A stretch of 64,000 bases of DNA from an uncultured bacterium (GTDB lineage: Bacteria; Lernaellota; Lernaellaia; JACKCT01), in NCBI GenBank assembly GCA_964591275.1, contig CAZQAE010000012.1, forward strand, positions 4,860 to 68,859, given 5' to 3'. Under the pieces are notes generated by a model that saw only the letters and a program-made list of their open reading frames with translations, searched no databases and was not told where the DNA came from. Numbering within the stretch: the stretch's first letter is position 1; each line of letters begins with the position of its first letter. Shown here piece after piece: positions 313 to 62,134 of this stretch. Position numbers and translations under genes: made by a program.

Positions 313-798
313 ATGATCAGAAAAAATACCCCTTGCATGCTCGTTATTATTTTAATTATTTTCTTGTGCCTATCGTGCTTTCACAAGATTGCTGATGACG
401 ACGACAATGATGACAGCAGCGACAGTTCACAGGATGATGATGCGAGTAGTAATCCTGATAACGATGATGACGAAAGCGATGATGATTTTACCAACTGCCA
501 CGATTATTATTCTTGTGGCTGTAATGATTATGACGATGGATGCGTAAAATATGGTTTTGATCCATGCTATGATATGGGTTGTGATACATACGAATCGTCT
601 ATGGTCGGTGTTTATAGCTGCTCTTCACCTAATCAATTTGTAGAGAATGCGAAAGCGTTTTTGATTTCAAAAGGTATTGAGCCTTGTGGTGAGCTGGCAG
701 TTAGAGCTTGCGGGTATGACCCTGAGCAGCTTTATACTGCTTGTGCGCCGTCCTATGGTTGTATAAGAGCTTGGGACATATGCGAATACTTTGATTAA
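313..798 (+). CDS. secreted Cys-rich acidic lipoprotein-like protein
   Basis: Hydrophobic signal peptide with a lipobox-like LSC, then a long Asp-rich tract (ADDDDNDDSSDSSQDDD...DDDESDDD) and a Cys-rich C-terminal half. Confidence 0.5.
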   Translation: MIRKNTPCMLVIILIIFLCLSCFHKIADDDDNDDSSDSSQDDDASSNPDNDDDESDDDFTNCHDYYSCGCNDYDDGCVKYGFDPCYDMGCDTYESSMVGVYSCSSPNQFVENAKAFLISKGIEPCGELAVRACGYDPEQLYTACAPSYGCIRAWDICEYFD

Positions 799-1122
799 AA
801 GAATTCATGACAGCGGAACTGTTGAAAAAGTTCTATTTCCATCGAGCCCTGTTTTGCTCCATTAAGCATATCGAAATTCCCATCCCGTATTGAAAACCAT
901 CAAAATTCTCCCACGGACCTACGCGAAAAGATCTATCGAACCGGCAACTCAATTTCCTTAACCTTTTAGGAAAATTCCTCTTCAATCAAAGCAATCCACA
1001 CTTAACAACGCTATCGTCATCGTCGTGGTAACCTAAGAAAAGTTTTGTAAATTTGAAAAGACCCCTGATCTGGTGATGATTGGATTTTGTAAATCAACAT
1101 CAGGCTTTGAGCGAATCCAACA

Positions 1123-2454
1123 TCACAGCAGATTCGCCGCCAGTTCCGCCAGTCCCGAGCGTTCACCTTTATAGAGCGAAACGTGTCCGGAGATTTCCTG
1201 CCCTTTGAGTTTCTCCACAACGTAGGACAGGCCATTGGAGGATGAATCCAGGTAGGGATTGTCGATCTGGTAGGGATCGCCCGTCAAAACGACCTTTGTT
1301 CCTTCGCCGGTGCGCGTGATAACGGTCTTGACCTCGTGCGGCGTGAGGTTCTGCGCCTCGTCGATGATAAGGAACTGGTGGGGGATCGAGCGCCCTCGAA
1401 TGAAAGTCAGGGCTTCCATTTGGATGACTTCCTTATTTTCCAGGTCGGTGAGCCTCGTATACTGGGCCGCCTTGTCGTTGGGGTTGCTGAGCAAAAATTC
1501 CAGGTTGTCATAGATGGGCTGCATCCAGGGCCTAAGCTTCTCATCGATGCTGCCGGGCAAAAAACCCACGTCCCGGCCCATGGGAACAATGGGACGCGAG
1601 ATGAGAATGCGCTGATAAACTTCGTCTTTCACGACCTTTTCCAAAGCCGCGGCCAGGGCCAGAAGCGTCTTGCCCGTTCCCGCTTTTCCCACCAGAGTCA
1701 CCAGTTTCAGGTCATCATCGAGGAGAATATCCAGCGCGAAGCGTTGCTCCCGATTGCGCGGCTTTAGGGAGAACACTGAGCCTTTAAGTTTCTTGACGAC
1801 CTGCACGGATTTCCCATTTTTCAACCGGCAAAGGGCCGTGTGGTTCGGATTGCCCTCGTCGATCAGCGTGAGAAACTGATTGGGATACAGGGTTTCCTCC
1901 GAGCTTTCGATTTCCACGGTCCCTTCGGCGTAGAGTTCGTCGATAAGTTCTCCGGGCACTTCAAATTCTGAAGCGCCGCTGTACAACTCCTCAATATCGA
2001 CCTTAGCGTTTTCAAAATCCTCGGCTTCCAGGTCCAGGGCGTCGGCCTTGATGCGCAGGTTCGTGTCTTGCGTGACAAGGATTGTGCGGGCGCCTGGATT
2101 TTCCTTCTGGATGCGCAAAGCAACGCCCAGAATGCGATTGTCATTATTATTGTTGAAAAGTATGCCGCCCAGCGTTCCGCTGTCCTCCCAGTCCAAAACG
2201 ATGCGAAGTGAACCGCCGCCGGGAAGATCAACGCCCTTGTTCAGTTTTCCGCCCTTTCGCAGATCATCGAGGATACGGCTGACCGCGCGAGCGTTTCGCC
2301 CGATCTCGGACAATTCTTTTTTGAAACGATCAATTTCCTCGATCACGATGATCGGGAGGATTATCTGGTTGTCCTCGAAAAGGAAAATTGCTTTTGGATT
2401 GTGCAAAAGGACGTTGGTATCCAGGACAAAAAACTTTGGCCGGCCTTTGGGCAT
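1123..2454 (-). CDS. PhoH2-type ATPase (N-terminal PIN domain + PhoH ATPase)
   Basis: N-terminus FFVLDTNVLLHNP is PIN-like; Walker A GKAGTGKTLLALAAAL followed by PhoH-like ATPase body. The probable start is the internal ATG (MPKGRPKFFVLDTNV) preceded by GAGGG. Confidence 0.8.
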   Translation of the reverse strand: MPKGRPKFFVLDTNVLLHNPKAIFLFEDNQIILPIIVIEEIDRFKKELSEIGRNARAVSRILDDLRKGGKLNKGVDLPGGGSLRIVLDWEDSGTLGGILFNNNNDNRILGVALRIQKENPGARTILVTQDTNLRIKADALDLEAEDFENAKVDIEELYSGASEFEVPGELIDELYAEGTVEIESSEETLYPNQFLTLIDEGNPNHTALCRLKNGKSVQVVKKLKGSVFSLKPRNREQRFALDILLDDDLKLVTLVGKAGTGKTLLALAAALEKVVKDEVYQRILISRPIVPMGRDVGFLPGSIDEKLRPWMQPIYDNLEFLLSNPNDKAAQYTRLTDLENKEVIQMEALTFIRGRSIPHQFLIIDEAQNLTPHEVKTVITRTGEGTKVVLTGDPYQIDNPYLDSSSNGLSYVVEKLKGQEISGHVSLYKGERSGLAELAANLL

Positions 2455-2728
2455 TGGAAATCCCTCGTGGGAAAAAGAAAATGTGGAATGGAGTGTTTTC
2501 TGATTGGCGATGGCAGGCGGAATCGTTGGTTCAAGATAATCCTTGAAATGCGTGTAAATGGCGCTCAATGCTTAAGAGCGTCTGTTCTCCTGCTTTCATT
2601 TTTATACAAGAGTACAACGGGGATCAAGGAAAAATTTTCCATGTTCGTCAAAACATCCGACTGGTCTTATAGGTTTTCAAGGGTTTTAGGGACTGGACTC
2701 CAAGCATAAAATGATCGCGCCCGCGATT

Positions 2729-11509: not shown

Positions 11510-12367
11510 ATGTTCTTTTTGGACGTCGTAAAAAAATATCTTTGGATGATCAAGCTGGTTTTTGTCGCCGTTTTCGCCATTGAACTGGCCTTGCTGGTCA
11601 ACACGAGAATCGAGGCGAAAGTCGGCGCGGCGCCGATCATCGACTTGAGCGAGGTGACCCTGAGCGTGGCCGGCGGCTATATTTCGATCTCTGAATATGA
11701 GCAAATCCTGAAAAAGAACATTTTTAACTCGGCATACGTCTATAAGCCACGGGTTGCGAGCGGTATGAATCTGAAGGTGAACGAAGATTACGATCTTATC
11801 GGTACCGTGGCCTGGCGACAGCCATATTCCCTCGCGATAATCCAGGCAAAGCGAGCCAACAAGGTCGACGTCTATCGCGTTGGCGACCTAATTCAGGATG
11901 AGGCCGAAGTGACGCTCATTGAGCCTCGGCGCGTTACTTTATTGCGTGGCAGTAAGATCGAGATTCTGGAAATGCCCTATGAACGCATCGAGCTTGCCTC
12001 GCGGTCCAATCTTGAGGCTGGCGAAGGCGGCATCGCCAAGTCGGGCGACGACCATTTTGTCGTGGATAAAAGCGTCATCGATACGGCTTTTTCCAATTGG
12101 GGTCAGATGATGCGGGGAGCACGCATCATGCCTCATTTCGACAAGGGGAAAATCACCGGATTCAAGGTCTCCCGGATCAGGGCGGACAGCCTGTATAAGA
12201 AAATCGGTCTTGTAAATGGCGACATTCTTCACAGAATCAATGGACTGGAATTTAAAGGGCCCGAAGACGCCTTTAAAATGATGTCTGAACTCAAGGAATC
12301 AAAAAACGTTTCACTGGACATTTCCCGAAAAAGCGCCAGGAAAACATTGACCTATTCGATTCGATAA
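11510..12367 (+). CDS. gspC: type II secretion system protein GspC-like (N-terminal TM + C-terminal PDZ)
   Basis: N-terminal TM helix and a C-terminal PDZ-like segment (GFKVSRIRADSLYKKIGLVNGDILHRINGLEF); sits immediately upstream of the secretin. Confidence 0.55.
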   Translation: MFFLDVVKKYLWMIKLVFVAVFAIELALLVNTRIEAKVGAAPIIDLSEVTLSVAGGYISISEYEQILKKNIFNSAYVYKPRVASGMNLKVNEDYDLIGTVAWRQPYSLAIIQAKRANKVDVYRVGDLIQDEAEVTLIEPRRVTLLRGSKIEILEMPYERIELASRSNLEAGEGGIAKSGDDHFVVDKSVIDTAFSNWGQMMRGARIMPHFDKGKITGFKVSRIRADSLYKKIGLVNGDILHRINGLEFKGPEDAFKMMSELKESKNVSLDISRKSARKTLTYSIR

Positions 12368-12398
12368 GGGAAACACGATCCAAACGGGATATTTCGAT

Positions 12399-14933
12399 AT
12401 GAAAACAAGACAAAAAACAGGGAATCCTATGACGATAATGGCTTTCGGTTTAAAAAGGCGATCTTTCATTTTCGGATTGGTCCTTTTGATGATGCTCTCG
12501 ATGACGGTGTTTGCGGCGCAGGCCCAGGAAGAACCGACCAAGAGCGAAGATGAGGAAACCGCGACCGAAGAAGAAGGCGAACCGGACAAAACGGACAATT
12601 CCGACGAGGACGACGATACCGAAGAGGACGATGACACCGAGGAGGAAGAAGAAAAAACCGGAGAGGACAAAAAGGCCAAGCGTACTTTTCCGAGCCTCAA
12701 TGACAACGAACGCAACGTGTCCATCGATTTCACGGATACGGACATCAAGCAGATTGTGAAGATTATGTCGGAAATGACCGGCGAGAACTTCATGGTCGAT
12801 AAGGGCGTTTCCGGAACTGTCACGATCATCAGTCCCACGAAAGTCACGTCCCGGGAAGCCTATGACATTTTCATGTCCATATTGGCCGTTAACGGTTTTA
12901 CCACCGTCAAAGTTGGAAAGATCACAAAAATCATCCCGATCAAAGACGCGCAGTCATCGCCGGTCAAAACAAGAATGTCAGGATTGCCCAGGAGCAGCGA
13001 CGAATTCATCACTCAATTGGTGCCTTTGCAGCATATCGACGCCAATGACGCCATCACGGCCTTTAGAAGCTTCGTTTCGCCCAACGGCAACATGTTCGCC
13101 TACGGACCGTCGAACATGGTCATCATCCTCGATTCTTCCGTCAACGTGAAACGGCTCATGAGAATCCTGATGCAACTCGACGTGTCCGGCGGCAAGCAGG
13201 AGGTCGTGGTCATTCCCCTGGAGTACGCCTCGGCGGAGCAATTGGCTGACGTCATCCTGGAACTTTTCGAAGCGACTTCCTCGAAAACACCAGCGCGAAG
13301 GACCATTCAAAGCCGCCTGCGAGCACGTAGCAAACGTGGAGCCACCAGAAAAACCGCTCTCGGCAGCACATCCGTTCCGGCGAAAGACGACACCAAGATT
13401 CTGGCTGACACACGCACCAACAGCCTGATCGTCAAGGCCGGAAAAGTCGGTCTGACTCAGATAATGAATCTCATCAGAAAATTGGATCAACCTTTGCCCG
13501 GCGGCGAAGGGAAAATCCATGTTGTATTTTTAGAGAACGCGGAATCCGAAGAACTGGCGCAGACACTGGCTGATCTTGCCGGTAGCGGAGGAGGCACGGG
13601 CGCCGCCAGGGGTCTTAGCAAATCCCGCAGCAACACCAAAAACATGGCGCGCAACAGGACTCAGGGACTGCGTGGACAGCAGCAGCAGGGAAATCAGCGA
13701 CTGGGACAAACGACGGGGCGCTTTCTGGCCGACTTCGATGGCGCGGTTCGCATCACGGCGGAGCCTGCCACCAACTCCCTGGTCATCATCGCCAGCAACC
13801 GGGATTTCAAGATTTTAAAGGAAGTTATCGACAAGCTCGATATTCCGCGACGACAGGTCTTTGTTGAGGCGCTGATTATGGAAATCAGCATGGACCGCGG
13901 CTTGGACGTGGGATTCGAGTTCCGTTCGACCAATGATATGAGTGAAGACGGCGTCCAGGTTATCGGCGGCACCAATTACGGCGGCATTCAACAGGCCGCC
14001 GCCAATCCGATGGGCATCTCGGGATTCGCCATCGGCGCCGCCGACGGCACCATTACCTTTGCCGGTGAGACCTTTCCCAACATCGGCGCTCTGTTTCGCG
14101 CCATGGCCACAGATCAGGACGTGAACATTCTGTCCACGCCGCACATATTGACCCTGGACAACGAGGAAGCGGAAATCGTGGTCGCCGACAACGTTCCCTT
14201 CGTGACCGGGCAGATTTTTTCGACGAATAACACGAATCCGACCACGACCATCGAGCGCAAAGACGTGGGCATCACGCTGCGCCTGACGCCGCAGATTAAC
14301 GAAAGCGACTTCGTAAAGCTGATGATCTATCAGGAAGTCAGCCAGGTGACCGACAGTCCCGAGGGTCTTTCGGCGGCCTCGGTGGGCGTGACGACGGCCA
14401 AACGCACCGCCGACACGGTGGTGGTGGTCAAGGATCGACAGACGGTGATCATCGGTGGATTGCTCAAAGACTCCAGCCAGATTGTTGAATCGAAAATCCC
14501 GATCCTGGGCGACATACCTCTGCTGGGATACCTGTTCAAAAGCAGCAAGTCCAAGGTGAGCAAAACGAACCTTCTGATCTTCCTGACGCCGTACATCATC
14601 AAAGACTCGGCGGATATTGAGGAAGTGACGCGCATGACCAACAAGCGGATGGAAGATTTCCGCGAGCGACATCAAATTCCCCAAACCTTCGACCGTTTCA
14701 ACGATCTGGATCCCGACCGGATAACGCCCAAGGAAGGCGTGTTCAAGGCCCCGATGGGAGAGTCCATCGAGACCGATCCGAGGCTGCGCCGCCAGTTGGA
14801 GGGAACGGAAGAAGAGAGCTTTGATGAAAACCAAAGCTCAACGGAAGACGACGAGGAGGATCAGGGCGCACGGGATGAGACATCCACCGGTTCGGAACCG
14901 GACGATCTTCAACCTCTCGAAGAGGGTCAATAG
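12399..14933 (+). CDS. gspD: type II secretion system secretin GspD with acidic N- and C-terminal low-complexity extensions
   Basis: Secretin N domains and the C-terminal secretin core (NVNILSTPHILTLDNEEAEIVVADNVPFVTGQ, LLIFLTPYIIKD); acidic tract EEPTKSEDEETATEEEGEPDKTDNSDEDDDTEEDDDTEEEEEK after the signal peptide. Confidence 0.85.
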   Translation: MKTRQKTGNPMTIMAFGLKRRSFIFGLVLLMMLSMTVFAAQAQEEPTKSEDEETATEEEGEPDKTDNSDEDDDTEEDDDTEEEEEKTGEDKKAKRTFPSLNDNERNVSIDFTDTDIKQIVKIMSEMTGENFMVDKGVSGTVTIISPTKVTSREAYDIFMSILAVNGFTTVKVGKITKIIPIKDAQSSPVKTRMSGLPRSSDEFITQLVPLQHIDANDAITAFRSFVSPNGNMFAYGPSNMVIILDSSVNVKRLMRILMQLDVSGGKQEVVVIPLEYASAEQLADVILELFEATSSKTPARRTIQSRLRARSKRGATRKTALGSTSVPAKDDTKILADTRTNSLIVKAGKVGLTQIMNLIRKLDQPLPGGEGKIHVVFLENAESEELAQTLADLAGSGGGTGAARGLSKSRSNTKNMARNRTQGLRGQQQQGNQRLGQTTGRFLADFDGAVRITAEPATNSLVIIASNRDFKILKEVIDKLDIPRRQVFVEALIMEISMDRGLDVGFEFRSTNDMSEDGVQVIGGTNYGGIQQAAANPMGISGFAIGAADGTITFAGETFPNIGALFRAMATDQDVNILSTPHILTLDNEEAEIVVADNVPFVTGQIFSTNNTNPTTTIERKDVGITLRLTPQINESDFVKLMIYQEVSQVTDSPEGLSAASVGVTTAKRTADTVVVVKDRQTVIIGGLLKDSSQIVESKIPILGDIPLLGYLFKSSKSKVSKTNLLIFLTPYIIKDSADIEEVTRMTNKRMEDFRERHQIPQTFDRFNDLDPDRITPKEGVFKAPMGESIETDPRLRRQLEGTEEESFDENQSSTEDDEEDQGARDETSTGSEPDDLQPLEEGQ

Positions 14934-14976
14934 CGATCGGTTTCGACATCTCCCAACCAGGATTAGTGTAAGGATC

Positions 14977-16674
14977 ATGGCGAAGCGAATTGGTGAAATA
15001 CTTGTTGAAAACGGCGTAATTGACGCGGAGACGCTGGACAAGGCGCTGGAAGCGCAGGAGCAAAAGGGCGGACTTCTGGGCGAGACTCTCATTCGGATGA
15101 AGGCCGTTTCCGAATTGGATTGTCTAAAAGCCCTGGCCGGGCAGTTTCATCTTCCGCTGATAGAGCAAATCGATCCGGAAAAGGTCGATGGCAGTCTTCT
15201 GGCGCGGATTCCGATCAATTACGCGAAAAAGAACCTGGTTTTGCCTCTTCATGTCGAAGACGAAAAGATCCTTGTGGCCTGCACCAATCCCCTGGCCTAT
15301 ACGGTTCTCGACGACCTGAGAGTATTTTTGGGCGGGGAGATTCAGCCCATTCTGTCCACGGTGGGCATGATCTTCGACGCGATCAACATCGCATACGACA
15401 AGGCCAAGGAAACCACTGACGAGATGCTCGACCATCTGGAGGATGAGAGCGCCGCGCCCACCTTCGACCTGGACGAGATCACCGATATCATCGACGCTAC
15501 CGACGAAGATGCGCCCATCATCCGCCTCATCAATCACCTGATGTACAAGGCGGTCAAGGATCGCGCCTCCGATATTCACATCGAGGTTTTTGAAAACGAC
15601 GTCATCGTTCGCTTTCGCATCGACGGCGTGCTTTACGAAGTTATGAAGCCGCCGAAGCGCTTCCACAATTCTATTGCCACGCGCGTGAAAATCATGGCGA
15701 AATTGAATATCGCTGAAAAACGTATCCCGCAGGACGGGCGTATCCGCATCAAAATAGCCGGCAAGGACATCGACATTCGAACCAGCATCATCCCAACGGC
15801 TTGGGGAGAGCGCGTCGTTATGCGCCTGCTGGATAAATCGCAGGTGAGCCTTGACCTGGAAGGATTGGGGCTGGGCGGTGAAAAACTTCATAAGGTTGAA
15901 GCGCTTATTCAAAATCCTTACGGCATTCTCCTGGTGACCGGTCCGACCGGTTCCGGGAAAACCACGACTCTCTATGCCTCGCTGGTTCGTCTCAACAAGC
16001 CGGATGTCAACATTCTGACCGTCGAGGACCCGATAGAATATCAGATTTCCGGCATCGGCCAGATGCAGGTTAATCCGAAGATCAAACTCACTTTCGCCTC
16101 GGGCTTGCGTTCTTTTTTGCGGCAGGATCCCGACATCATTCTCGTCGGCGAAATCCGCGATCTGGAAACTGCGGAAATCGCGATCCAGGCGTCCTTAACC
16201 GGCCATCTGGTCTTCTCGACCCTCCACACAAATGACTCGGCCAGCGCTTTTACGCGTCTGGTCGATATGGGCATGGAGCCTTTCCTGGTGTCCAGTTCGC
16301 TGATCGGCGTTATTGCGCAAAGGCTGGTGCGTGTCCTGTGCCCGCAGTGCAAAGCGGTCTATTCGCCGACCGAAGAAGAGTTGGCAAAAATCGATCTTAA
16401 GCCGGAGGATGTCAAAACTCCCATTTACAAGTCCGTCGGCTGCTCAAACTGCATGGACACCGGATATTCGGATCGAACCGCTATCTACGAAATCCTCACG
16501 ATGGATGAGGACATCCAGCAACTGATTCTTTCCAACGCAGACGCCAACGCTATCAAACGAAAAGCTATCGACAACGGTATGACGACCTTGCGGATGGATG
16601 GAGCAGACAAGGTGCTGCGCGGCGAAACAAGCATCCAGGAAATTCTGCGTGTCACATCGGCGGATGTGCAATGA
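14977..16674 (+). CDS. gspE: type II secretion ATPase GspE
   Basis: Walker A LVTGPTGSGKTTTL, Asp/His boxes and the C-terminal CxxC...CxxC zinc motif (CPQCK...CSNCMDTG); start ATG at 14977 preceded by TAAGGA. Confidence 0.9.
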   Translation: MAKRIGEILVENGVIDAETLDKALEAQEQKGGLLGETLIRMKAVSELDCLKALAGQFHLPLIEQIDPEKVDGSLLARIPINYAKKNLVLPLHVEDEKILVACTNPLAYTVLDDLRVFLGGEIQPILSTVGMIFDAINIAYDKAKETTDEMLDHLEDESAAPTFDLDEITDIIDATDEDAPIIRLINHLMYKAVKDRASDIHIEVFENDVIVRFRIDGVLYEVMKPPKRFHNSIATRVKIMAKLNIAEKRIPQDGRIRIKIAGKDIDIRTSIIPTAWGERVVMRLLDKSQVSLDLEGLGLGGEKLHKVEALIQNPYGILLVTGPTGSGKTTTLYASLVRLNKPDVNILTVEDPIEYQISGIGQMQVNPKIKLTFASGLRSFLRQDPDIILVGEIRDLETAEIAIQASLTGHLVFSTLHTNDSASAFTRLVDMGMEPFLVSSSLIGVIAQRLVRVLCPQCKAVYSPTEEELAKIDLKPEDVKTPIYKSVGCSNCMDTGYSDRTAIYEILTMDEDIQQLILSNADANAIKRKAIDNGMTTLRMDGADKVLRGETSIQEILRVTSADVQ

Positions 16675-16715
16675 GCAGTGAACAATGAGCAATGAACAAT
16701 TAGCAATGAACAGTG
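16669..16715. repeat. 14 bp tandem repeat (CAATGAGCAATGAA x about 3.3) starting at the gspE stop codon
   Basis: caatgagcagtgaa caatgagcaatgaa caattagcaatgaa cagtg. Confidence 0.7.
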
Positions 16716-16797
16716 TAGGAGCGACATTCTTGTCGCGATCCCGGCGTAGGGGGCAGGTCCCCCGTGCCTGCCCGTGTAGGAGCGATATAACTCGCGG
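16713..16797. repeat. palindromic dispersed repeat family 1, copy B (two left-arm copies flanking a G5-N5-C5 hairpin)
   Basis: gtgtaggagcgacattcttgtcgcga ... gggggcaggtccccc ... gtgtaggagcgatataactcgcg; lies in the gspE-gspF intergenic region. Confidence 0.5.
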
Positions 16798-16813
16798 AAA
16801 ATAAGCGAAACCA

Positions 16814-18046
16814 ATGCCCGTTTATCAATACAAAGCCATGAACGCCCAGGGAAAATCGATCTCGGGCCTTATCGACGCGGACAATGAAAACACCGCCAAG
16901 GCGAAACTCCGTCAGGAAAAAAAATTCCCCACCTCCATCGAAGAGGTTGAGGAAGGCAAGGTCACGCGGGGCAAGGGCCTGTCCATGGAGATCGACCTGC
17001 GTGTCTTGCTGGGACGCATCAAAACGCAGGATCTGGCCATAGCTTTGCGCCAGTTCTCCACATTGATCGGCGCGAGTATTCCCATGGACAACGCCTTGAT
17101 GGCCCTTTCCAAGCAGGTCGAAAATCCACTTCTTATGAAGATATTCACGCAGGTGCGTGAGAAGGTGACTCAAGGGACTTCTCTGGCCAACGCCTTGAAG
17201 GATTTTCCGAAAACTTTCACGCCTCTTATGGTGAACATGATCAACGCCGGCGAGCAATCCGGCACCCTGGATCAGGTTTTGGGGCGCATTGCCGACTTCT
17301 CCGAGGACACGCTCGACCGTCAGCAAAGAATCAAATCCGCCATCATGTATCCGATTTTCATGCTCTTTATCGGCTCGGGCATTATGGCCTATCTCGTCGC
17401 CTTCGTGATCCCCAAAATATCCCAGATTTTTGAGGGAATGCACAAAACTCTGCCGCCGATGACCCTGCTGCTGCTGGGCACCGCCGACTTCATCAAAAAT
17501 TACTGGTGGTTTGCGATAATCCTCGGAATCGCGGGGTACTGGCTTTTTTCCCGCTGGCGCAAAACACCCAAAGGGCGCAAGAAATTCGACCGCTTCACTC
17601 TTTGGCTGCCGGTGTTCGGGCCGCTGATCCGGAAAATTGCCGTGAGCCGTTTCACACGCACTTTGGGAACCCTGCTGAGCAGCGGCGTGCCGATCATCGA
17701 GTCGATGAACATTGTCAAAAACGTCGTTTCCAATGTCATCATCGAAGAGGCGATTGACGGCGCCAAGGACAATATCCGCGAAGGGCAGTCAGTCTCCCGT
17801 CCCCTGGAGGCTTCCGGCGTATTTCCTCCCATGGTGATTCACATGATTATGGTGGGTGAACAGACCGGAGAGCTGGAGGATATGCTCTTTCGCGTGGCGG
17901 ACGCCTATGACCGGGAAGTCGCCTCGGCCATTACGGGTATGATGGCCCTGCTGGAGCCGGTGATGATTCTCGTCATGGCCGGCGCCGTCGGATTTGCCGT
18001 CATTTCGATTCTGATGCCGATCATGGACATGACGACGGGAATGTGA
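16814..18046 (+). CDS. gspF: type II secretion inner-membrane platform protein GspF
   Basis: MPVYQYKAMNAQGKSISG is the GspF/PilC N-terminus; two repeated T2SSF domains with 3 TM segments. Confidence 0.9.
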   Translation: MPVYQYKAMNAQGKSISGLIDADNENTAKAKLRQEKKFPTSIEEVEEGKVTRGKGLSMEIDLRVLLGRIKTQDLAIALRQFSTLIGASIPMDNALMALSKQVENPLLMKIFTQVREKVTQGTSLANALKDFPKTFTPLMVNMINAGEQSGTLDQVLGRIADFSEDTLDRQQRIKSAIMYPIFMLFIGSGIMAYLVAFVIPKISQIFEGMHKTLPPMTLLLLGTADFIKNYWWFAIILGIAGYWLFSRWRKTPKGRKKFDRFTLWLPVFGPLIRKIAVSRFTRTLGTLLSSGVPIIESMNIVKNVVSNVIIEEAIDGAKDNIREGQSVSRPLEASGVFPPMVIHMIMVGEQTGELEDMLFRVADAYDREVASAITGMMALLEPVMILVMAGAVGFAVISILMPIMDMTTGM

Positions 18047-18217
18047 TGTCCGATTTGAGTGAATGGATGCATCTGGATGTTGATCGCTTTGGTGAAAGCC
18101 GCTTTCGCGAAGGAACCGTTTAAGATGGCATCGGGATTGCAAAGTATATTCCGACAGACTCCTGGGGATATGAAAACCTGAGTCGAATATGGATTATTGC
18201 GCGTAAGGAGGTTCGCG

Positions 18218-18655
18218 ATGACGTTTTTGAAGCTGAGAAGGCCTTTACCCACCGGACGCCGTATGGTTTCGGGCGGTTTTACATTGCTGGAAATCATGGT
18301 GGTGGTCATCATCATCGGAACCATCGCCGGACTGGTCGGCGTCAAGGTTCTCGATAGATTGGAACAGGCCCGGATGGAGGCGTCCATGGCGCAAATGTCT
18401 TCGATAAAAAGCGCACTCGACCTTTTCAAAATGGACAACGGATTTTATCCGACGACCGACATCGGTCTGATGGCGCTCGTAGCGCCCAGACCCGACGCGA
18501 TGGGAGCGGGAGTTTCCGGTTATCTGAACAGCGATATGGTGCCTGTCGACCCCTGGAACCGACCCTATGGCTATGTTTCCGATGGTTATGCCTTTACAGT
18601 CTGGTCCAACGGACCCGACGGCGTGCCGCAATCGCAGGATGACATCACGGGCTGA
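18218..18655 (+). CDS. gspG: major pseudopilin GspG
   Basis: Prepilin motif G|FTLLEIMVVVIIIGTIAG; AAGGAGG RBS 8 nt upstream of the ATG at 18218. The alternative ATG at 18263 would give the canonical short leader MVSGG|F. Confidence 0.85.
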   Translation: MTFLKLRRPLPTGRRMVSGGFTLLEIMVVVIIIGTIAGLVGVKVLDRLEQARMEASMAQMSSIKSALDLFKMDNGFYPTTDIGLMALVAPRPDAMGAGVSGYLNSDMVPVDPWNRPYGYVSDGYAFTVWSNGPDGVPQSQDDITG

Positions 18656-18698
18656 GCTTCCGGTGGCATCATGCCAATCCAATGCGGAAGGTGGATGA

Positions 18699-19373
18699 TT
18701 GAAATCGCGATGGATACAGCATGTCGCCAGGGGATTACGCTGCGGTGATTTCAAGTCGCGGGCGCGCGCCGTGACGATTTGCATCAGCGCAAAATCCCTT
18801 CCCCGAAACGCCGCCAAAGGATTCACGTTACTGGAAATCCTCGCTGTGATGCTCATTATCGCCATTGTCATGTCCATCGCCATACCCCGATTCGGAGACG
18901 TTTTTCAGACCAATGTCAAAGGAGCGATGCGGAAATTCACTGGAATGGTGAAATTTTGTTTCCATGAGTCGGTCATTAAGCAGACTCATTTGAGGCTGAT
19001 GATTGATCCGGTCAAAGGAGAATACTGGCCGACCTTATTGGCGACATCCGGCAGCGTTGGCCAATTCGTGAGTTTAACCGGCAGCGATGTCATTTCAAAA
19101 AAAGGCAAGCTTCCTAACGGCATTCGCTTCATTGACGTGGTGACGCCTCATAACATCTTTAAAATCGACAAGGACGAGGCCTTTATCGCCTTTTATCCGA
19201 CCGGTTTCGTGGAAAGGTCAGTGATTCATCTCGGCGACGACGCCGGTCGATTTTACACCCTCGTCACGCAGCCTCTCACAGGGGATATGGAGGTTCTGGA
19301 CGGTTACGTGGACATTGCCGACACCAATCAATTCGAGGGACCGTTCTCGCTGTCGCAAAGCGGAAACCAATGA
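18699..19373 (+). CDS. gspH: minor pseudopilin GspH-like
   Basis: KG|FTLLEILAVMLIIAIVMSIAIP prepilin motif; the ORF begins with TTG; an internal GTG at 18761 would give a 17 aa leader; the true start is unresolved. Confidence 0.6.
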   Translation: MKSRWIQHVARGLRCGDFKSRARAVTICISAKSLPRNAAKGFTLLEILAVMLIIAIVMSIAIPRFGDVFQTNVKGAMRKFTGMVKFCFHESVIKQTHLRLMIDPVKGEYWPTLLATSGSVGQFVSLTGSDVISKKGKLPNGIRFIDVVTPHNIFKIDKDEAFIAFYPTGFVERSVIHLGDDAGRFYTLVTQPLTGDMEVLDGYVDIADTNQFEGPFSLSQSGNQ

Positions 19374-19939
19374 TGCAACGTGGACAAAATCCCGAGATCA
19401 AACAGGCAAGGAACCGGATTATTTTCGGCGCTTTCACTCCGCGCGAAGGCCGCAAGGGCTTTTCGCTTTTGGAAGTCATGGTCGCGATGGCTATTTTGGC
19501 GACGGTTCTGGTGGTGCTCCTTCAAAATCACGGAATGTCCATACGGGTGAGCCTTCGCGCCAGGCAGGCTTCCGTCGCCGCGAATCTTGCGCGGGACCTG
19601 ATGACGGAGATCGAACTGGAAGGTTTTCCCATGGTGGGCTCGGAAACGGGGAACTTCATGGACCGCTACCCAGGTCTGTATCCGGGATATACCTGGGAGC
19701 GCGAGGTGAACGAAAGCGTCTTCGCTGACTATATCCGCGAGGTAACGGTCCGCGTGAACTATCCCGTGGATCGCAGCACGGCAGGGATAGAACTTCTCAA
19801 CCTCATCGGCGCCAAGGACATCGAGGAACAGGAGATGGCCGGCCTTGGCGGCGGCGAGCTGTCCGGGAAAAGTCCCGGCGAACAGGCTCTCATGAGCAGC
19901 ATGGGGCGCATGAGCGAAGGCGGTGGAGATAAGAAATGA
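19370..19939 (+). CDS. gspI: minor pseudopilin GspI
   Basis: KG|FSLLEVMVAMAILATVLVVL followed by the typical GspI N-terminal segment; ATGA overlap with gspH; leader of about 29 aa. Confidence 0.7.
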   Translation: MMQRGQNPEIKQARNRIIFGAFTPREGRKGFSLLEVMVAMAILATVLVVLLQNHGMSIRVSLRARQASVAANLARDLMTEIELEGFPMVGSETGNFMDRYPGLYPGYTWEREVNESVFADYIREVTVRVNYPVDRSTAGIELLNLIGAKDIEEQEMAGLGGGELSGKSPGEQALMSSMGRMSEGGGDKK

Positions 19940-20754: not shown

Positions 20755-20796
20755 CAGTGAACTGTCGTCAACGAAGATTGGTTTGGTTAACGGATA

Positions 20797-23914: not shown

Positions 23915-23939
23915 TCACACCTCATACTTCATACTTCAT
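23915..23939 (-). repeat. 3'-end motif family 2, copy 2 (ATGAAGTATGAAGTATGAGGTGTGA on the minus strand)
   Basis: Overlaps the last three codons and the stop of the minus-strand lipoprotein gene; inverted relative to copy 1, which lies about 100 bp away. Confidence 0.6.
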
Positions 23940-41998: not shown

Positions 41999-42436
41999 AT
42001 GCCGTGGCTCAAATTTCTGACCTGGGTGTTTTGCCTTTCATTCATTGCCGGCTCTTTTGTATTGACCGCGTGCGGGGGCGCTGAAGACGACGGGGAAGAC
42101 GAGGATGACGAATCCGACGACGATACCGAGCCGGAGGAGGCGACATCGCAGGAGTGTGTCGATGCCATGACCCGACTTTTCGGCGAGGACGGATGTGCGA
42201 ATCCCGGTGAATATCCGTATTACAGCGATGAAAATATTCAAGGTTCCTGCGATCAGGATTTCGGGGTTGCCGCGCAGTCCGAATGTCATAAAGCGGCTTA
42301 TGCGAATTTTGTCGCGTGCATGGAGCAAATAGATTGCGCCGATGCGCATGACAGCTACCAGGTTTGGACGGATTGTGGAATCGACTTCGGCGACGCCATC
42401 AATATCTGCGATTGCCCGCCGGACGGCATTTGCTAG
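41999..42436 (+). CDS. small secreted Cys-rich lipoprotein with acidic tract
   Basis: Lipobox VLTACGGAEDDGEDEDDESDDDTEPEE then 10 Cys in about 100 aa. Confidence 0.5.
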   Translation: MPWLKFLTWVFCLSFIAGSFVLTACGGAEDDGEDEDDESDDDTEPEEATSQECVDAMTRLFGEDGCANPGEYPYYSDENIQGSCDQDFGVAAQSECHKAAYANFVACMEQIDCADAHDSYQVWTDCGIDFGDAINICDCPPDGIC

Positions 42437-52230: not shown

Positions 52231-54066
52231 TTGATCGACAAAAAGCCGAATAACAAGCCGCAGGTGGTGCGCCCCCGCTCCTTTACCACGCTTGTGCTGA
52301 TGGTATGCGCTGCGCTGGCTGTCATTTACTACGTCTCACAACGCACCGGAGATCCCAACGCCAGGATGCTTCGCGACGTTTTTGGTCTTATTGACGAGTT
52401 TTATCTTGTCGCAACGGATCGTGAAGCCTTGATGACCGATGCATTTACGGGCATGGCGAAAACCCTCATTCCGAAGCCGGAGACAAAAACCCCATCCGCC
52501 GATGACGACACTATGGATGACGATGATTCAGCCGGAGCAGGCGATGATGATTCGGCCACTGCGGATGGCGACGCAAAGGCCGGGGATTCGGTCAGCAACG
52601 GCGGTGAGAAAGCGCTGTCCGACGAGCCGGAAAAGCAATACGACGAAGTTTCTCTATTGAACATGATGAAGGAAATGAAAAGCCAGCAGGAATCGCTGGA
52701 AAACGCGGCTGATCTGCCGCCGAGTCCTCTGACCGTCGTTGCGAAAGACGGAGAAATTACGCTGACGATAAATGACCAATCCATGACCATTGCCGTGGTC
52801 GACGACCGAAACCAAGCCGTCGATGCCTACATGCGCGGTTATCGTTTCGTCATGCGAAACATAGAGGGCGACGCAGGCGACAAACTCTTTTATAAATCGC
52901 TGGAATACATGACCAGGAAGCTGGACCCGCACTCGGGATTTCTGCCGCCCGTGCAGTATGACAACATCCAGGCGGAAACGCAGGGACATTTCGGCGGCGT
53001 GGGCATTGAGGTCGGCATTCGCGGCGACATGCTGACGGTCGTCGCGCCCATTGAAGGAACGCCGGCGTTTAGGGCGAAGCTTGCGCCCATGGATCGCATC
53101 GTGGCCGTGGAAGGCAAAACGACAATCGGTATGTCCCTGTACGAAGCGGTCAACTTGATTCGCGGCGAAATCGGCACCCCGGTGGTCCTGACGATCCGCA
53201 GGGTCGGCATCGACGATTTCGATGTGAAACTCATTCGTAGCGACATACCGGTCAATACGATAAAAGCGATTTGGCAAGATGGAAACGTTGCATGGGTGCG
53301 AATATTTTCATTCAATCAATCGACAGCCGATGATCTTAAAAGCTCCCTGAAATCCTTCGAGTCGGAGCACGGCGACATCCGGGGTCTGATTCTGGATCTG
53401 CGATTCAATCCGGGAGGTCTTCTCGATCAGGCCGTCGCGGTGTCGGACATGTTCCTGGAATCGGGCATGATTGTAAATACGCTCGGGCGCGGTCGCCTCC
53501 GGGAAAGCGAAAGTTTCGCCGCATCACCGGGGACGCGTGGCGGCGTTCCCATTATCGTGCTGGTCAATAACGGGTCCGCCAGCGCCTCGGAGATCGTTGC
53601 CGGTGCTCTGCAGGATCATGAGAGGGCACTGGTTGTTGGAACGCGGACCTTCGGCAAGGGAAGCGTGCAAAGCATCTTCCGACTGCCCGACAACGCCGGT
53701 CTGCGCCTGACGACGGCTCTTTACTATACTCCCAGCGGTCGCTCTATTCAGGCCTCGGGTATTACTCCCGACGTTCACATTCGTTTTCCCGAACTTGAAG
53801 AGCAACTCGCCGCCCTGCACTCGGAGTCAGCATTCAAAGGACAGATCAAAAGCAATATGACCGTCCAGGAAGTTCCTGATGTGGAAATTGACGGGAAAGT
53901 TCTTCACGAATTTTATCAGAAGACAGGAAAAATTGTGGAAGATGAATTTCAGCCGGAAAAAAACGACTGGCTATTGGTCTTCGCCGTGGAAATCCTTCAG
54001 GGAAAGGATATTTCCGTTCCGGGAATGACAGCGCACGCCGACAGCATCCTAAAGACTCTGAAATAG
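52231..54066 (+). CDS. carboxy-terminal processing (S41, Prc/CtpA-type) peptidase with PDZ domain and acidic insert
   Basis: PDZ (GIEVGIRGDMLTVVAPIEGTPAFRAKLAPMDRIV); S41 core (LILDLRFNPGG, the catalytic Ser GSASASEIVAGALQD, K in TFGKGSVQ); Asp-rich insert DDDTMDDDDSAGAGDDDSATADGD; probable TTG start at 52231 after GGAG. Confidence 0.75.
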   Translation: MIDKKPNNKPQVVRPRSFTTLVLMVCAALAVIYYVSQRTGDPNARMLRDVFGLIDEFYLVATDREALMTDAFTGMAKTLIPKPETKTPSADDDTMDDDDSAGAGDDDSATADGDAKAGDSVSNGGEKALSDEPEKQYDEVSLLNMMKEMKSQQESLENAADLPPSPLTVVAKDGEITLTINDQSMTIAVVDDRNQAVDAYMRGYRFVMRNIEGDAGDKLFYKSLEYMTRKLDPHSGFLPPVQYDNIQAETQGHFGGVGIEVGIRGDMLTVVAPIEGTPAFRAKLAPMDRIVAVEGKTTIGMSLYEAVNLIRGEIGTPVVLTIRRVGIDDFDVKLIRSDIPVNTIKAIWQDGNVAWVRIFSFNQSTADDLKSSLKSFESEHGDIRGLILDLRFNPGGLLDQAVAVSDMFLESGMIVNTLGRGRLRESESFAASPGTRGGVPIIVLVNNGSASASEIVAGALQDHERALVVGTRTFGKGSVQSIFRLPDNAGLRLTTALYYTPSGRSIQASGITPDVHIRFPELEEQLAALHSESAFKGQIKSNMTVQEVPDVEIDGKVLHEFYQKTGKIVEDEFQPEKNDWLLVFAVEILQGKDISVPGMTAHADSILKTLK

Positions 54067-56075: not shown

Positions 56076-56873
56076 ATGTTTAGCAGATCCCACACCCTGT
56101 TCATCTTGTTGATTATAGTGAGCGCATTCGTCCTGGGCGGCTGCGATGTCTTCGAAGACGTGCAAGACTCCGTCACGGATTCGATTAACGATTCCGCCAG
56201 GCAAAGGCAAAATTTCGAATTGCGCATGGACCCCTTGCCTGTCGGCGTGCCGGAAGAATTTCTCGCGTATATCCCGGAGGACGTTCGCGCCGAGTACGAA
56301 GCATTACTCGCCGAATACAGGGAAAATGGCGAACCGGCGGATATCGACACGCTGCTGGAGATGTTTGACGATTATATCCAGATGGCCGCCGATGAATTCG
56401 GCCAGGAGTACGTGGATATGATCATCGGAGCGCTGCATGGGAAGTTCTGCCTTCCAATAGCGCAGAGCATCGACGATTATATGGTCGACGAATCCTGGTG
56501 GTCGGATGCCAAGAGCCATCTTGAGGAAGTCGAGATTTCCGAGATGAATTATAAGGTGAAAAGCAACGCTTCCACAGCGCACATTCATTTCAACTTCTAC
56601 CTGACTGACTCCGCGGACTGGGAGCAGATCACCGCCGCCGAAATTTTTGGCGTCACCGACTGGATTTCCGCAGGCGAGAATGTGGATTGGACTCCTCTTA
56701 TTGTGGAGGCCGACGCTTATGCGCGTATGGAAAATCTGATGCTCCATCCCTCCACGGATTTTTCAGTTTGCGTGACGATTCCTGAGATTGAAGAGGGTGC
56801 CGCGGACCTCCTGATGATAAGCCAGGAAGTACAGATTGAGCTCAGCGGAATCGTTACATTTGTGCCTCTTTAG
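56076..56873 (+). CDS. hypothetical lipoprotein
   Basis: MFSRSHTLFILLIIVSAFVLGGC lipobox; GGGAGG RBS; acidic body with no recognisable domain. Confidence 0.4.
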   Translation: MFSRSHTLFILLIIVSAFVLGGCDVFEDVQDSVTDSINDSARQRQNFELRMDPLPVGVPEEFLAYIPEDVRAEYEALLAEYRENGEPADIDTLLEMFDDYIQMAADEFGQEYVDMIIGALHGKFCLPIAQSIDDYMVDESWWSDAKSHLEEVEISEMNYKVKSNASTAHIHFNFYLTDSADWEQITAAEIFGVTDWISAGENVDWTPLIVEADAYARMENLMLHPSTDFSVCVTIPEIEEGAADLLMISQEVQIELSGIVTFVPL

Positions 56874-60127: not shown

Positions 60128-60141
60128 TCCATTAATGCAGG

Positions 60142-60179
60142 AAACAGGCGGTGGGCATTTATCTGCCGTCTGTTTTTTT
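60142..60179 (+). terminator. rho-independent terminator after the KTSC gene
   Basis: aaacaggcgg-(loop)-ccgtctgttt followed by TTTTTTT. Confidence 0.6.
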
Positions 60180-60382
60180 CACTGGCAACGGCCAGTTATG
60201 GTTGTCTGAAATGCGTTTTATACTCCGAAAGAACCTTATCCCGGATTGAAATGAATGACCCAATAAGAATTTCGACACAACGAATTCCTCAATTATGGAA
60301 AAATGAAGGGGTAATTTAGACAAAATAGGATCCAATTGCAGATTTTTGGTGGAGAACTTCGATAGATGATAATCGTTTTCGC

Positions 60383-62134
60383 CTATCGAATCAGTCCGAA
60401 GAGGAAGGGATCGGTGCTTTGCGGGGCGGTAAATTCCAATATGGCTTCGGCCCAGTCGTTTTTCCCGTTGATGAGCCTGATCCATCCGGCATCGTCGCTG
60501 CTCGATCCATAATGAATCACCTGCATTTCAGGAATGTTGTCCTCGTCGAAATCCCAGAGGCTTCCGCGAAACGCGGCGCCGGCAATGAAATCGGTGTCGA
60601 AAGCGATGGAGGGCCCCAGATCATCGAACACGGCAATGCGATGATGATAATATAGGTCAGCGAGCTCTAGGTAGTGCGTGGATATGGTCGCCAGTTCCGC
60701 CATGTCGTCGCCGTCGAAATCCCGAAGCACGGCGCTAAGGCGCAAATGTTTATTATCTCCATCCCCGGCCAGGCCGTCGAAGGTCGCCGCCGGTCCTTGC
60801 TTCGGATCGGCATACAGTTCAATGGACGCCGGACCGCCCTCCTCGTAGTTTTCCTGACTGACGCCGAAAACCGGTTCCATGCTACCGAAGCTTGCCGCGC
60901 CGATCAGCCCGTCAGGCCGGGTCTGGCCGATCAGATCAATCCTGTCGCCTGTGGCCTCGAAGCGCGTCGCCATCACGTAACCCTCGCCGGATAGATAAAT
61001 GTCGATAAAAGAAAAATCGTCATCGCCCGGGGGATTGGCCATGACAACCAGATCGGACTGTTCGTCATTGTCCAGGTCGTAACGAAAGCTCACCTGCGCG
61101 GAAGTCTCGGCCGGATAAACGAAAGTCCGCTTGGGGGCGCCGAAATTGTCCATGATGAGATAAACGACGGTTTGCGCTTCCTGCTCAAGGGCCAGAGCGA
61201 TTTCCGGATCGCCGTCCCGGTCGGCGTCCGCCGTCGCCGCGGAAAAGGCCCCTGCGCGCCTGAGAGTATAAGGGCCGATTCCGCTAACGGTTTCGCCGTC
61301 CAGGTTCACTGCGTTAAAGCTCACATCGGGCGCGTCGCCCGCGCGATCGTAAACCGCCGTCAAAAACTCCTGGCCCTTGAGGCCGGAAAAGTCTCCCGGT
61401 CCGATCCAGGCCGAACGAACCGGCAGCCCGAGCAGGTCGATAACTTTTCCCGGCGGCGCTGAAATATCCCATAGATCAACGTAGTCCGCGCTTCCGTCAA
61501 AGGCGTGCAATGCGCCGCCTTGATCCCCTGTGGGCCTGACGCGGACGATGAGTTCGGGGATTCCATCGCCGTTTATGTCGGCGTTGGGACCCAAAAAAGC
61601 CTGCGCGTCTTCGTAAGCGCCCAGGATTCTTGAGGACGCCAGGCTTTGCGCGTCGAGTAGAACAACTTCCGATTCGCTGTCGCCCGCCAGACTCATGCTG
61701 ATCCAGGAGACGACGATCTCTGCTTTTCCGTCTCCGGTGAAATCCTCAACCGATATCCAGGCGGTTCCTATTTCCCCAAGTTCTTTTATTTCGCCGACGC
61801 GCCGCACCTCGCCGGAAGGCGACGCGATCAATGAAATCTGCGCCCGGCTGCCCTCATCGGCTATCCATTGCGTCATGGCCAGGGCAAACTTCTCATCGCC
61901 GTCGTCCACTTTGGCCGGAACGAAAAGGAATTGATCCACCGCAACCTCGTCATCGTCGTTGTCGTCATCTGAATCGTCGTTTAGGTCGTCATCAATGGCG
62001 GTATCGTCGTCGGAGTCATCATCCTCGGCGTCGTCATTGGCCTTTGAATCATCATCGTCGCCGCAGTCGCATCCAGCCTGCGTGATGAGCATGAGTAAAA
62101 ATAAAGCGAGAAATATCGTAGTCCATTGGCGCAT
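60383..62134 (-). CDS. secreted lipoprotein with poly-Asp linker and FG-GAP/VCBS-like beta-propeller repeats
   Basis: LITQAGCDCGDDDDSKANDDAEDDDSDDD...; repeated DxDGDGxxE motifs (DFTGDGKAEI, DINGDGIPEL, DADRDGDPEI, DFDGDDMAEL). Confidence 0.55.
   Translation of the reverse strand: MRQWTTIFLALFLLMLITQAGCDCGDDDDSKANDDAEDDDSDDDTAIDDDLNDDSDDDNDDDEVAVDQFLFVPAKVDDGDEKFALAMTQWIADEGSRAQISLIASPSGEVRRVGEIKELGEIGTAWISVEDFTGDGKAEIVVSWISMSLAGDSESEVVLLDAQSLASSRILGAYEDAQAFLGPNADINGDGIPELIVRVRPTGDQGGALHAFDGSADYVDLWDISAPPGKVIDLLGLPVRSAWIGPGDFSGLKGQEFLTAVYDRAGDAPDVSFNAVNLDGETVSGIGPYTLRRAGAFSAATADADRDGDPEIALALEQEAQTVVYLIMDNFGAPKRTFVYPAETSAQVSFRYDLDNDEQSDLVVMANPPGDDDFSFIDIYLSGEGYVMATRFEATGDRIDLIGQTRPDGLIGAASFGSMEPVFGVSQENYEEGGPASIELYADPKQGPAATFDGLAGDGDNKHLRLSAVLRDFDGDDMAELATISTHYLELADLYYHHRIAVFDDLGPSIAFDTDFIAGAAFRGSLWDFDEDNIPEMQVIHYGSSSDDAGWIRLINGKNDWAEAILEFTAPQSTDPFLFGLIR

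Follow-up and report, generated by a model that had tools for sequence, protein, structure and literature searches.

The 64,000-nucleotide stretch of DNA analysed here (the window) comes from an uncultured bacterium of the Lernaellota (assembly GCA_964591275.1, contig CAZQAE010000012.1, positions 4,860 to 68,859). It encodes seven lipoproteins in which a tract of aspartate residues follows the lipobox cysteine. In the translations of these seven open reading frames (ORFs), a signal peptide with a basic n-region and a hydrophobic core leads to a lipobox-type Cys, and an Asp run begins 2-8 residues further on. Two of the seven are small Cys-rich lipoproteins. The first (313..798, plus strand) reads ...LCLS-C-FHKIA-DDDD, with the Cys at residue 22 (nt 376-378) and an acidic linker of 42 residues including 18 Asp (nt 379-504), and has no Pfam match. 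The second (41999..42436, plus strand) reads LTA-C-GGAEDDGEDEDDESDDD, with the Cys at nt 42071-42073 and a mixed Asp/Glu linker at nt 42074-42154. The Peptidase_C25 lipoprotein (31079..32482, plus strand; SFLS-C-VGPDS-DDDD, Cys at nt 31136-31138) continues into a (DDDx)n linker of 73 residues, with 47 Asp and 0 Lys/Arg, encoded by 12/36/48-nt tandem repeats (nt 31139-31357). An FGE-sulfatase domain is found in two lipoproteins. One of them (32572..33390, minus strand), whose start is probably the Met at nt 33390 (272-aa gene call), reads LMSA-C-SG-DDDDEEDDGDDDDDDDDDD, with the Cys at nt 33313-33315 and poly-Asp at nt 33229-33312. In the other (33678..34886, plus strand; SVA-C-TSASGG-DDDDDD, Cys at nt 33753-33755), the proximal tract (nt 33774-33842) is followed by a 29-residue module with six Cys (nt 33837-33923) and then by a second tract, (DDDV)n (nt 33924-34052), a layout repeated in the related locus L067. 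The proximal motif stands alone in a lipoprotein of unknown fold at 41342..41863 (plus strand; ORF named 41330; VAS-C-NSSG-DDDDDD, Cys at nt 41414-41416). Finally, the FG-GAP lipoprotein (60383..62134, minus strand) reads QAG-C-DCG-DDDD followed by (DDDx)n, with the Cys at nt 62069-62071 and an acidic linker of 45 residues including 25 Asp (nt 61934-62068).

Two other lipoproteins of the window are built differently. The one at 23929..25131 (minus strand) has a Lys/Glu-rich region after the Cys and carries a DDDxDDD tail at its C-terminus (DDDTADDDTMDDDVDDDTADEV, nt 23932-23997), a layout also present in P0041 and P0045. The ninth (56076..56873, plus strand; ORF named 56016; GG-C-DVFEDVQDS) is tract-free and provides a contrast within the window. 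Two acidic inserts were also observed. A Glu/Asp-rich one (12528..12668, plus strand; aa 44-90) lies just past the signal peptidase I (SPI) site of the GspD secretin (gene 12399-14933), and a short DDDxxDDDD insert, SADDDTMDDDDSAGAGDDD (52495..52572, plus strand; aa 152-177), lies in a membrane-anchored S41/PDZ protease (gene 52042-54066). The seven proteins, the C-terminal tract and the two inserts had all been named in the original prediction, made from the DNA alone, and all are present in the translations. The same is true of the lipobox context that it assumed: of the nine lipoproteins, seven pass the strict core pattern of PROSITE PS51257 type, and five of these belong to the seven that have N-terminal tracts. 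Near-canonical lipoboxes are those of 313 (Cys at -3), 60383 (Gln at -3) and 23929 (Asn at -2), and position -1 is Gly, Ala or Ser in all nine. The association of a lipobox Cys with an Asp tract is therefore genuine. Pfam recognised Peptidase_C25, two FGE-sulfatase domains and FG-GAP among the tract proteins and left four proteins without a family match, so that unrelated folds are decorated, as had been proposed. The first Pfam domain begins directly after the tract, from aa 107 for C25 and from aa 76 and aa 125 for the two FGE domains.

Exact protein matches were found in metagenome sources only (Logan SRR8862235, ENA ERZ27316679, JGI). An assembly artefact was ruled out, the same protein being present in independent assemblies. 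A haloarchaeal DUF7537 (PF24381) identity was considered for 60383 and rejected: the match reaches 19.9 bits against a cut-off of 31.7 and spans the signal peptide and the acidic N-terminus only. Pfam scans of the ORFs detected no lgt, lspA or lnt gene in the 64-kb window. Many tract proteins, 313 and 41999 included, consist of little beyond disulfide-rich acidic domains without family assignment. Small Cys-rich modules enclosed by two poly-Asp tracts recur at 33837-33923 of the window (e.g. CINCSGTAECTEALGAGWVCINDCCVDYG), at L067 9907-10869, and in P0003, P0004 and L077.

Signal-peptide classes were assigned with our own regex and hydropathy rules and checked by eye, rather than with SignalP or LipoP, and proteome-wide statements cover about 300 kb sampled from the window and its relatives. 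With an acidic tract defined in a six-frame scan as at least 8 Asp/Glu in 12 residues, all acidic tracts of the window fall inside the exported proteins described above. N-terminal tracts are carried by 7/9 lipoproteins versus 1/43 other proteins (Fisher p = 2e-6), and DDDD occurs within 15 residues after the Cys in 6/9 lipoproteins versus 0.05 expected from shuffled mature sequences. In signal-peptide-free proteins no tract was found, either in the window (0/27) or in unbiased flanks of a related assembly (0/64), i.e. 0/91. Poly-Asp is thus not equally frequent in cytoplasmic proteins, the check proposed with the original prediction, and the tracts are not merely compositional. Pfam annotation of essentially all window genes points the same way, about 25 clearly cytoplasmic proteins being tract-free. 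These include PhoH/PIN, pyruvate:ferredoxin oxidoreductase (POR) subunits, MutS2, PurD/PurE, Sua5, a sigma-70 factor, GpsA, a sigma-54 activator, Mrr, PanC and malic enzyme. The sample of relatives consisted of the 20-kb neighbourhoods of eleven matches in the related assembly, with counts taken from the first nine loci (L184-L192) and the trigger genes left out. In these flanks the script counted the N-terminal module in 12/21 lipoproteins versus 2/99 other proteins (p = 2e-9, uncorrected Fisher), which became 14/23 versus 0/97 after eye-correction of two lipoproteins that the regex had missed.

The module is restricted to this lineage. When the PurD of the window was compared with species-representative genomes, a single close relative was found, the metagenome-assembled genome (MAG) L055 with 84% identity, all others being at 59% or less. 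The 11.7 kb of L055 hold four poly-Asp tracts, in exported proteins. By comparison, 60 PurD loci of other lineages (~950 kb) yielded only two acidic tracts, unrelated and Glu-rich, neither of which adjoins a lipobox, and the PurD loci of Flavobacteriaceae and Bacteroidales (43-45% identity) have no such tracts. The lineage specificity put forward in the original prediction is borne out by these counts. A protein search with the C25 lipoprotein returned 22 matches, every one with a signal peptide, a lipobox Cys, (G)DDDD and (DDDx)n, several of them on Mb-size contigs of one long-read assembly. Their domains are C25, GDPD, LTD, FGE-sulfatase, heparinase II/III, DUF1565 or none recognised. A second protein search extended the list to cupredoxins, an alpha-amylase and a large number of small Cys-rich proteins, and a query with a single long tract (E <= 1) gave 28 small proteins. 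Some tract carriers are labelled 'Deltaproteobacteria bacterium' or 'bacterium' at NCBI. A 60-column profile of the Cys-anchored N-termini gave one match at E <= 1e-3 among 5.8 billion sequences, because a profile of this length is too short for a database of that size. A metagenome DNA scan for (DDD[AV])3DDD found the upstream lipobox or full architecture in about 15 of 119 loci; one sample, Ga0307990, was the source of 13 of the 80 loci listed. The same repeat was also met in unrelated surroundings, some of them eukaryote-like or non-coding. What is diagnostic is thus the combination of lipobox, G-D5 and tract, not the repeat by itself. In the literature searched (poly-Asp, aspartate-rich or acidic lipoprotein linkers, including those after haloarchaeal lipoboxes, and literal motif strings), this architecture is not described.

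An alignment at the Cys of 55 non-redundant tract-bearing lipoproteins resolves the module into two parts. Gly is found at position +2 in 51% of these proteins and Asp at +4 to +7 in 49-69%; the first DDD lies at a median of +5 (range +3 to +30) and the consensus is G-(D/G/C)-(D/G)-D-D-D. The first part is thus a position-fixed proximal motif, C-(G/S/A/C)1-5-D4-6. The second is a variable tract of period four, (DDDx)n, usually preceded by a short Ser/Gly/Thr/Pro spacer, in which x is Ala, Val, Ile, Ser, Leu or Thr in decreasing order. Over the 55 proteins the whole acidic linker has a median length of 68 aa (28-133) and a median net charge of -39 (-16 to -67), with 53% Asp and 0.7% Lys+Arg. 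Measured tracts span 17-128 aa, so the predicted 15-80 residues were roughly right. Cys-x-Cys motifs adjoin many tracts. The proximal motif can occur without the distal tract (41342, L137 174, L077). Conversely, (DDDx)n is found away from it: between domains, as FGE-tract-FGE in P0017 and flanking Cys-rich modules in 33678 and P0003/P0004; as a C-terminal tail in 23929, P0041, P0045 and several SPI-secreted proteins (L185 15913, L192 15613 and the S8 protease of L194); and, in one case (L069), after an SPI site.

The two parts also evolve differently. In the syntenic L193 orthologue of 60383 the proximal C-D-C-G-D-D-D-D is kept exactly and the distal tract differs in sequence and length, and in P0001, 90% identical to 31079, the tract is 16 aa shorter. 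The tract DNA is made of imperfect 12/36/48-nt tandem repeats. Asp codons within it are mixed GAC/GAT and show no bias (55% GAC versus 51-52% elsewhere), which suggests that the tracts are not fresh slippage products. Because its length varies, its position is movable and it lies exactly between the anchor and the first Pfam domain, (DDDx)n behaves like a linker.

A 24-nt element, CCTTCGACAAGCTCAGGGCAGGCT, was also noticed in the linkers of relatives; it is not in the window. It encodes PSTSSGQA in frame (FDKLRAG in another frame) and is carried unchanged by six paralogous linkers of at least two assemblies (L055 ~10288 and ~10876, L184 20215, L185 11749, L188 20275, L189 10090), with variants in L066, L081, L145, L179 and L192. 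Allowing up to 3 mismatches, it occurs 11 times in 1.94 Mb, each time within an acidic tract and in one and the same frame; ten of these copies are just past the N-terminal Cys and one is in a C-terminal tail. That it is conserved as DNA suggests that a repeat element or gene conversion is at work, rather than selection on the peptide.

The lipoproteins of the window and its relatives fall into two classes. The tract-free set in relatives comprises a BamB-like PQQ_2 propeller adjoining a YfgM-like TPR_21 gene, a DsbA-like thioredoxin, ApbE, an NMT1-type ABC binding protein beside its permease, PIG-L, MORN and two TPR proteins, i.e. classical periplasm-facing functions. The tract-bearing set comprises C25, FGE-sulfatase, GH36 melibiase, NosD/beta-helix, GDPD, heparinase II/III, alpha/beta-hydrolase, CocE/NonD and FG-GAP proteins, joined in relatives by cupredoxin and amylase folds. 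The split extends to amino acid composition. With the tract removed, the globular parts of tract-bearing lipoproteins have a median pI of 4.18 and 1.9% Lys, versus 5.55 and 6.5% in tract-free lipoproteins and 7.79 and 6.4% in signal-peptide-free proteins. Not one signal-less protein is as acidic as even the least acidic of the tract-bearing globular parts (Mann-Whitney U = 0). This gap indicates that the module marks a physico-chemically distinct class of proteins, and it suggests that the exoproteome is adapted to another ionic milieu or guarded against Lys/Arg-specific proteases such as the C25 enzymes.

The explanation favoured here, to which we give about an even chance, is that the module combines a sorting motif with a polyanionic stalk for outward-facing lipoproteins of signal-peptidase-II type. 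The bearers would be genuine lipoproteins of this type in a poorly sampled diderm lineage, in which one class, mostly hydrolases, binding or propeller domains and small disulfide-rich proteins with very acidic, Lys-poor globular parts, has the two-part module directly after the lipidated Cys. The proximal C-(G/S/A/C)1-5-D4-6 would act as the sorting determinant, keeping its bearers off the default periplasmic route and marking them for an outward-facing compartment. Elements of this sort set the destination of lipoproteins in all systems studied so far, as do Asp+2 and GDD in Lol avoidance, the export signal of Bacteroidota and the Gly/Asp motifs of surface lipoproteins that depend on type II secretion and GspN. 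The (DDDx)n tract would presumably form a disordered, charged stalk that extends and holds the domain off the anionic envelope, and would probably bind divalent cations as well. It may grow and shrink by slippage of its 12-nt repeat units, and in further exported proteins the lineage reuses it between domains and at the C-terminus. The surface targeting proposed in the original prediction thus receives circumstantial support, from the tract-free state of the periplasmic-type lipoproteins and from the acidic, Lys-poor composition of the marked class, and we infer the outward location from these two features. Its description of the tract as simply a hypertrophied export signal is not borne out in that form: only the short proximal C-G-D4-6 resembles the signal of Bacteroidota, and the long tract also occurs as a linker, as a C-terminal tail and once past an SPI site.

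Several observations weigh against this explanation. One FGE-sulfatase lipoprotein (L184 417) uses a Pro/Gly-rich linker instead, and cupredoxins, which are usually periplasmic, bear the tract (P0031, P0043). The sample of tract-free lipoproteins is small (about 15). GspD and a TonB-dependent receptor also have short acidic N-termini, at their periplasmic ends, so that acidity after the signal peptide is not in itself a surface mark. AlphaFold2 models residues 21-98 of the C25 protein as coil with pLDDT 30-40, against 56-80 in the flanks, in a model too poor overall (mean pLDDT 39, six-sequence alignment) to establish disorder specifically. Finally, GspL, GspM and GspN have no Pfam match among the window ORFs, those of the operon for a type II secretion system (T2SS) included.

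That operon (11510..21891, plus strand) encodes GspC, GspD, GspE, GspF, GspG, two further pseudopilins, GspJ and GspK. Since it is encoded in the window, the T2SS is a candidate route to the cell surface, and it may be one of the export routes open to motif-marked lipoproteins. In Acinetobacter, Burkholderia, Shewanella and Klebsiella (PulA), T2SS/GspN-dependent surface lipoproteins carry Gly/Ser-, Asn/Asp- or Gly+Asp-rich residues at P2'-P8', a motif proposed both to avoid the Lol pathway and to hand the lipoprotein to the T2SS (PMC12802150). The proximal motif described here is likewise Gly+Asp-rich over P2'-P8'. The known motif is at most 8 residues long, however, has no poly-Asp stalk and depends on GspN. 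Because GspN is not seen among the window ORFs, the module was not assigned to the GspN pathway.

The closest parallel in sequence is the lipoprotein export signal (LES) of Bacteroidota, an acidic run right after Cys+1, such as SDDDD in B. fragilis and SDDFE in F. johnsoniae (Lauber et al. 2016, PMC5080379). The LES takes the form K-(D/E)2, Q-A-(D/E)2 or S-D-D-D-D at +2 to +6, is position-critical, and marks surface-exposed, mostly nutrient-acquiring lipoproteins, not periplasm-facing ones (PMC5080379). The proximal C-G-D4-6 resembles SDDDD; the long (DDDx)n does not. The LES covers about 5 residues at +2 to +6, often starting with Lys or Gln, whereas the Asp run of the module starts at +3 to +12 after small residues, in a looser register and with Lys and Gln absent, and a stalk of tens of residues follows. 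Moreover, neither a place of the organism within the Bacteroidota nor a common export machinery is apparent. On account of the organism and of the looser register, the module was not placed under the Bacteroidota export system.

Other systems resemble the distal part. In surface lipoprotein enzymes of Saccharophagus degradans such as Chi18B, poly-Ser linkers of about 110 residues separate the lipobox from the catalytic domain and one domain from the next, and were read as placing the enzyme at the outer surface (PMC3124978). Here, too, a low-complexity segment separates the lipobox from the first folded domain and recurs between domains. Unlike the aspartate stalk, the linker of Chi18B is neutral and uncharged, lacks a fixed proximal motif and does not extend proteome-wide over one class of lipoproteins. 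In E. coli, linkers longer than 22 aa occur in about half of those lipoproteins that reside in the outer membrane versus 1 of 8 inner-membrane ones, and disordered linkers are needed for efficient Lol trafficking, with length rather than sequence being what counts (El Rayes et al., bioRxiv 10.1101/2021.01.05.425367). They have no compositional signature, in contrast with the near-pure polyanion found here. The latter follows the type of cargo and not simply the outer or inner membrane, the BamB-like protein being tract-free. By analogy, the module appears to work like a combination of acidic post-Cys sorting motifs, disordered lipoprotein tethers and homopolymeric linkers.

The alternative that fares best is a linker without any sorting role, which we consider possible, though clearly less probable than the sorting motif with stalk. 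Poly-Asp would then be the low-complexity spacer that the lineage prefers in extracytoplasmic proteins, in the place that poly-Ser or Pro/Thr take elsewhere. Repeat slippage would produce it, and it would be tolerated wherever a flexible spacer fits, its acidity mirroring that of an acidic, Lys-poor exoproteome, perhaps in saline or cation-rich water. The placement of (DDDx)n between domains (P0017, 33678, P0003/P0004), as a C-terminal tail (23929, L185 15913, L192 15613, L194) and past an SPI site (L069) agrees with this, as do the acidity of the globular domains themselves, the tandem repeats and variable length of the tracts, and the poly-Ser precedent of Chi18B, after the lipobox and between domains (PMC3124978). 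It is at odds, however, with a proximal C-G-D4-6 that is fixed in position and kept between orthologues while the distal tract drifts, with the lack of the module in periplasmic-type lipoproteins, some of which have other linkers, and with Asp codons as mixed as elsewhere, which are not those of fresh slippage products.

Retention in the inner membrane is rather unlikely. Here the post-Cys Asp would make the enzymes avoid Lol and anchor them in the inner membrane, with the long stalk reaching across the periplasm. Asp at +2 and 'GDD' are described as Lol-avoidance signals in E. coli and Pseudomonas (summarised in PMC12802150), where Asp right after the Cys sets the destination membrane, and they share with the module this placement of Asp; these signals comprise 1-3 residues and cause inner-membrane retention. 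Retention is also in line with the BamB-like outer-membrane lipoprotein, which has no motif, and with the LolA-like and LolC/E-like genes present in a relative. In that relative (L184 15220-18474, in the related assembly) a LolA-like gene (TP_0789-like) adjoins two MacB_PCD/FtsX permease genes, and a Lol-type lipoprotein pathway probably exists in the lineage on this account. Yet typical inner-membrane lipoproteins (ApbE, the ABC binding protein, the DsbA-like protein) also lack the motif. In addition, the cargo (GH36, heparinase II/III, beta-helix lyase-like, C25 protease, FG-GAP) suits polymeric extracellular substrates, and the distinct Lys-poor composition suggests a milieu unlike that of the periplasmic lipoproteins.

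Eukaryotic poly-Asp proteins bind Ca2+ and control mineralisation. A primary role in binding cations or minerals, in which the tracts would be a reservoir of Ca2+, Mg2+ or metal, bridge LPS or attach to mineral surfaces, would draw on this precedent, on net charges of -16 to -67 with almost no Lys/Arg and on the adjoining Cys-x-Cys motifs, but is unlikely given the lack of a conserved binding geometry, the free drift of tract length and sequence, and a fixed proximal motif and a lipoprotein class split that it leaves unexplained. Polycarboxylates and CaCO3 are the topic of PMC10761707.

The sorting rules of lipoproteins are largely unknown beyond Proteobacteria, Bacteroidota and spirochaetes, and the module offers a testable hypothesis of a third surface-sorting code. 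One functional class of lipoproteins is labelled by an easily spotted module and the periplasmic housekeeping class is not. A long aspartate stalk behind a lipid anchor is also a form of lipoprotein tether not described so far, and possibly a sorting code. Should the stalk matter in itself, it would represent a natural experiment in which a polyelectrolyte of -40 charges serves as a membrane tether, with possible use in surface display or cation capture.

A mirror image of the module was observed at the other end of exported proteins. About 15 lipobox-free, SPI-secreted proteins end in (DDDx)n...D5-7-(G/S/A)G-C-(G/C)-(G/C)-COOH, for example ...DDDDDDGGCGC*, ...GGSCCGC* and ...EDGCGCLT*, with the variants CCG, CCGC, ACGC and GCGCLT. 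All cases come from related loci (L192 15613-16722, L193 3341-5056, L193 1-1412, L194 4918-8226, L185 15913-17472, L188 20247-21008, and further L069, L108, L122, L142, L147, L162, L163 and L173), and none was found in the window. The tag mirrors the N-terminal C-G-C-G-D5, so that at both the N- and the C-terminus of exported proteins the tract can adjoin a terminal Cys motif. The C-terminal tail is matched by neither Pfam nor NCBIfam models, and NCBIfam has no model for the N-terminal module; the tail could be an anchoring or sorting tag not described before. More speculatively, both tags may belong to one lineage-specific, two-ended surface-display system, with lipobox-C-(G-C)-G-D5-(DDDx)n at the N-terminus, (DDDx)n-D5-G-G-C-G-C-COOH at the C-terminus, dedicated machinery and tolerant translation, a proposal that we regard as tentative and somewhat doubtful. 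Both tags would have to be recognised or modified by the dedicated machinery, and the lineage would need a way to translate 20-60 consecutive-type acidic residues near the N-terminus. In E. coli, poly-acidic runs near the N-terminus cause intrinsic ribosome destabilisation, and runs of the 20-Asp type are absent from the proteome (PMC11162784). The lineage studied here places poly-acidic runs within the first 100 residues of dozens of proteins.

The repetitive DNA of the tracts has consequences for annotation. The poly-Asp repeats give rise to spurious long antisense or out-of-frame ORFs of poly-Val/Ser/Ile type, e.g. at 31133-31498, 33708-34397 and 60159-60485 (all minus strand), which naive gene callers may annotate, and low-complexity masking conceals the module. 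Other repeats were also noticed. The spacer between GspE and GspF (16664-16810) contains 7/14-nt tandem repeats (CAATGAG/CAATGAA) and a direct repeat, GTGTAGGAGCGA, around the hairpin GGGGGCAGGTCCCCC, and resembles a REP-type intergenic element. Upstream of the POR alpha subunit, a long ORF contains in its frame a 6/12-nt tandem repeat (5342-5410) that encodes (Gly-Asn)n. Because the Pfam POR_N domain starts at residue 123, this repeat is probably part of a 5' extension or spacer and not of the real protein.

Some neighbouring genes complete the description. An LtaS-like membrane sulfatase (21888-23783) directly follows the T2SS operon. An Mrr-type restriction endonuclease gene (45285-46280), and an HTH/IrrE-type M78 peptidase gene that runs into the start of a PIN-domain gene (57910-59584), look like defence or toxin-antitoxin-type cargo amid housekeeping genes. 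In the related locus L188 (6054-9391), genes for a GatE-like protein (GatB_N, 636 aa) and GatD (GatD_N/asparaginase), i.e. an archaeal-type Glu-tRNA(Gln) amidotransferase, share a contig with poly-Asp lipoproteins, which is unusual for a bacterium.

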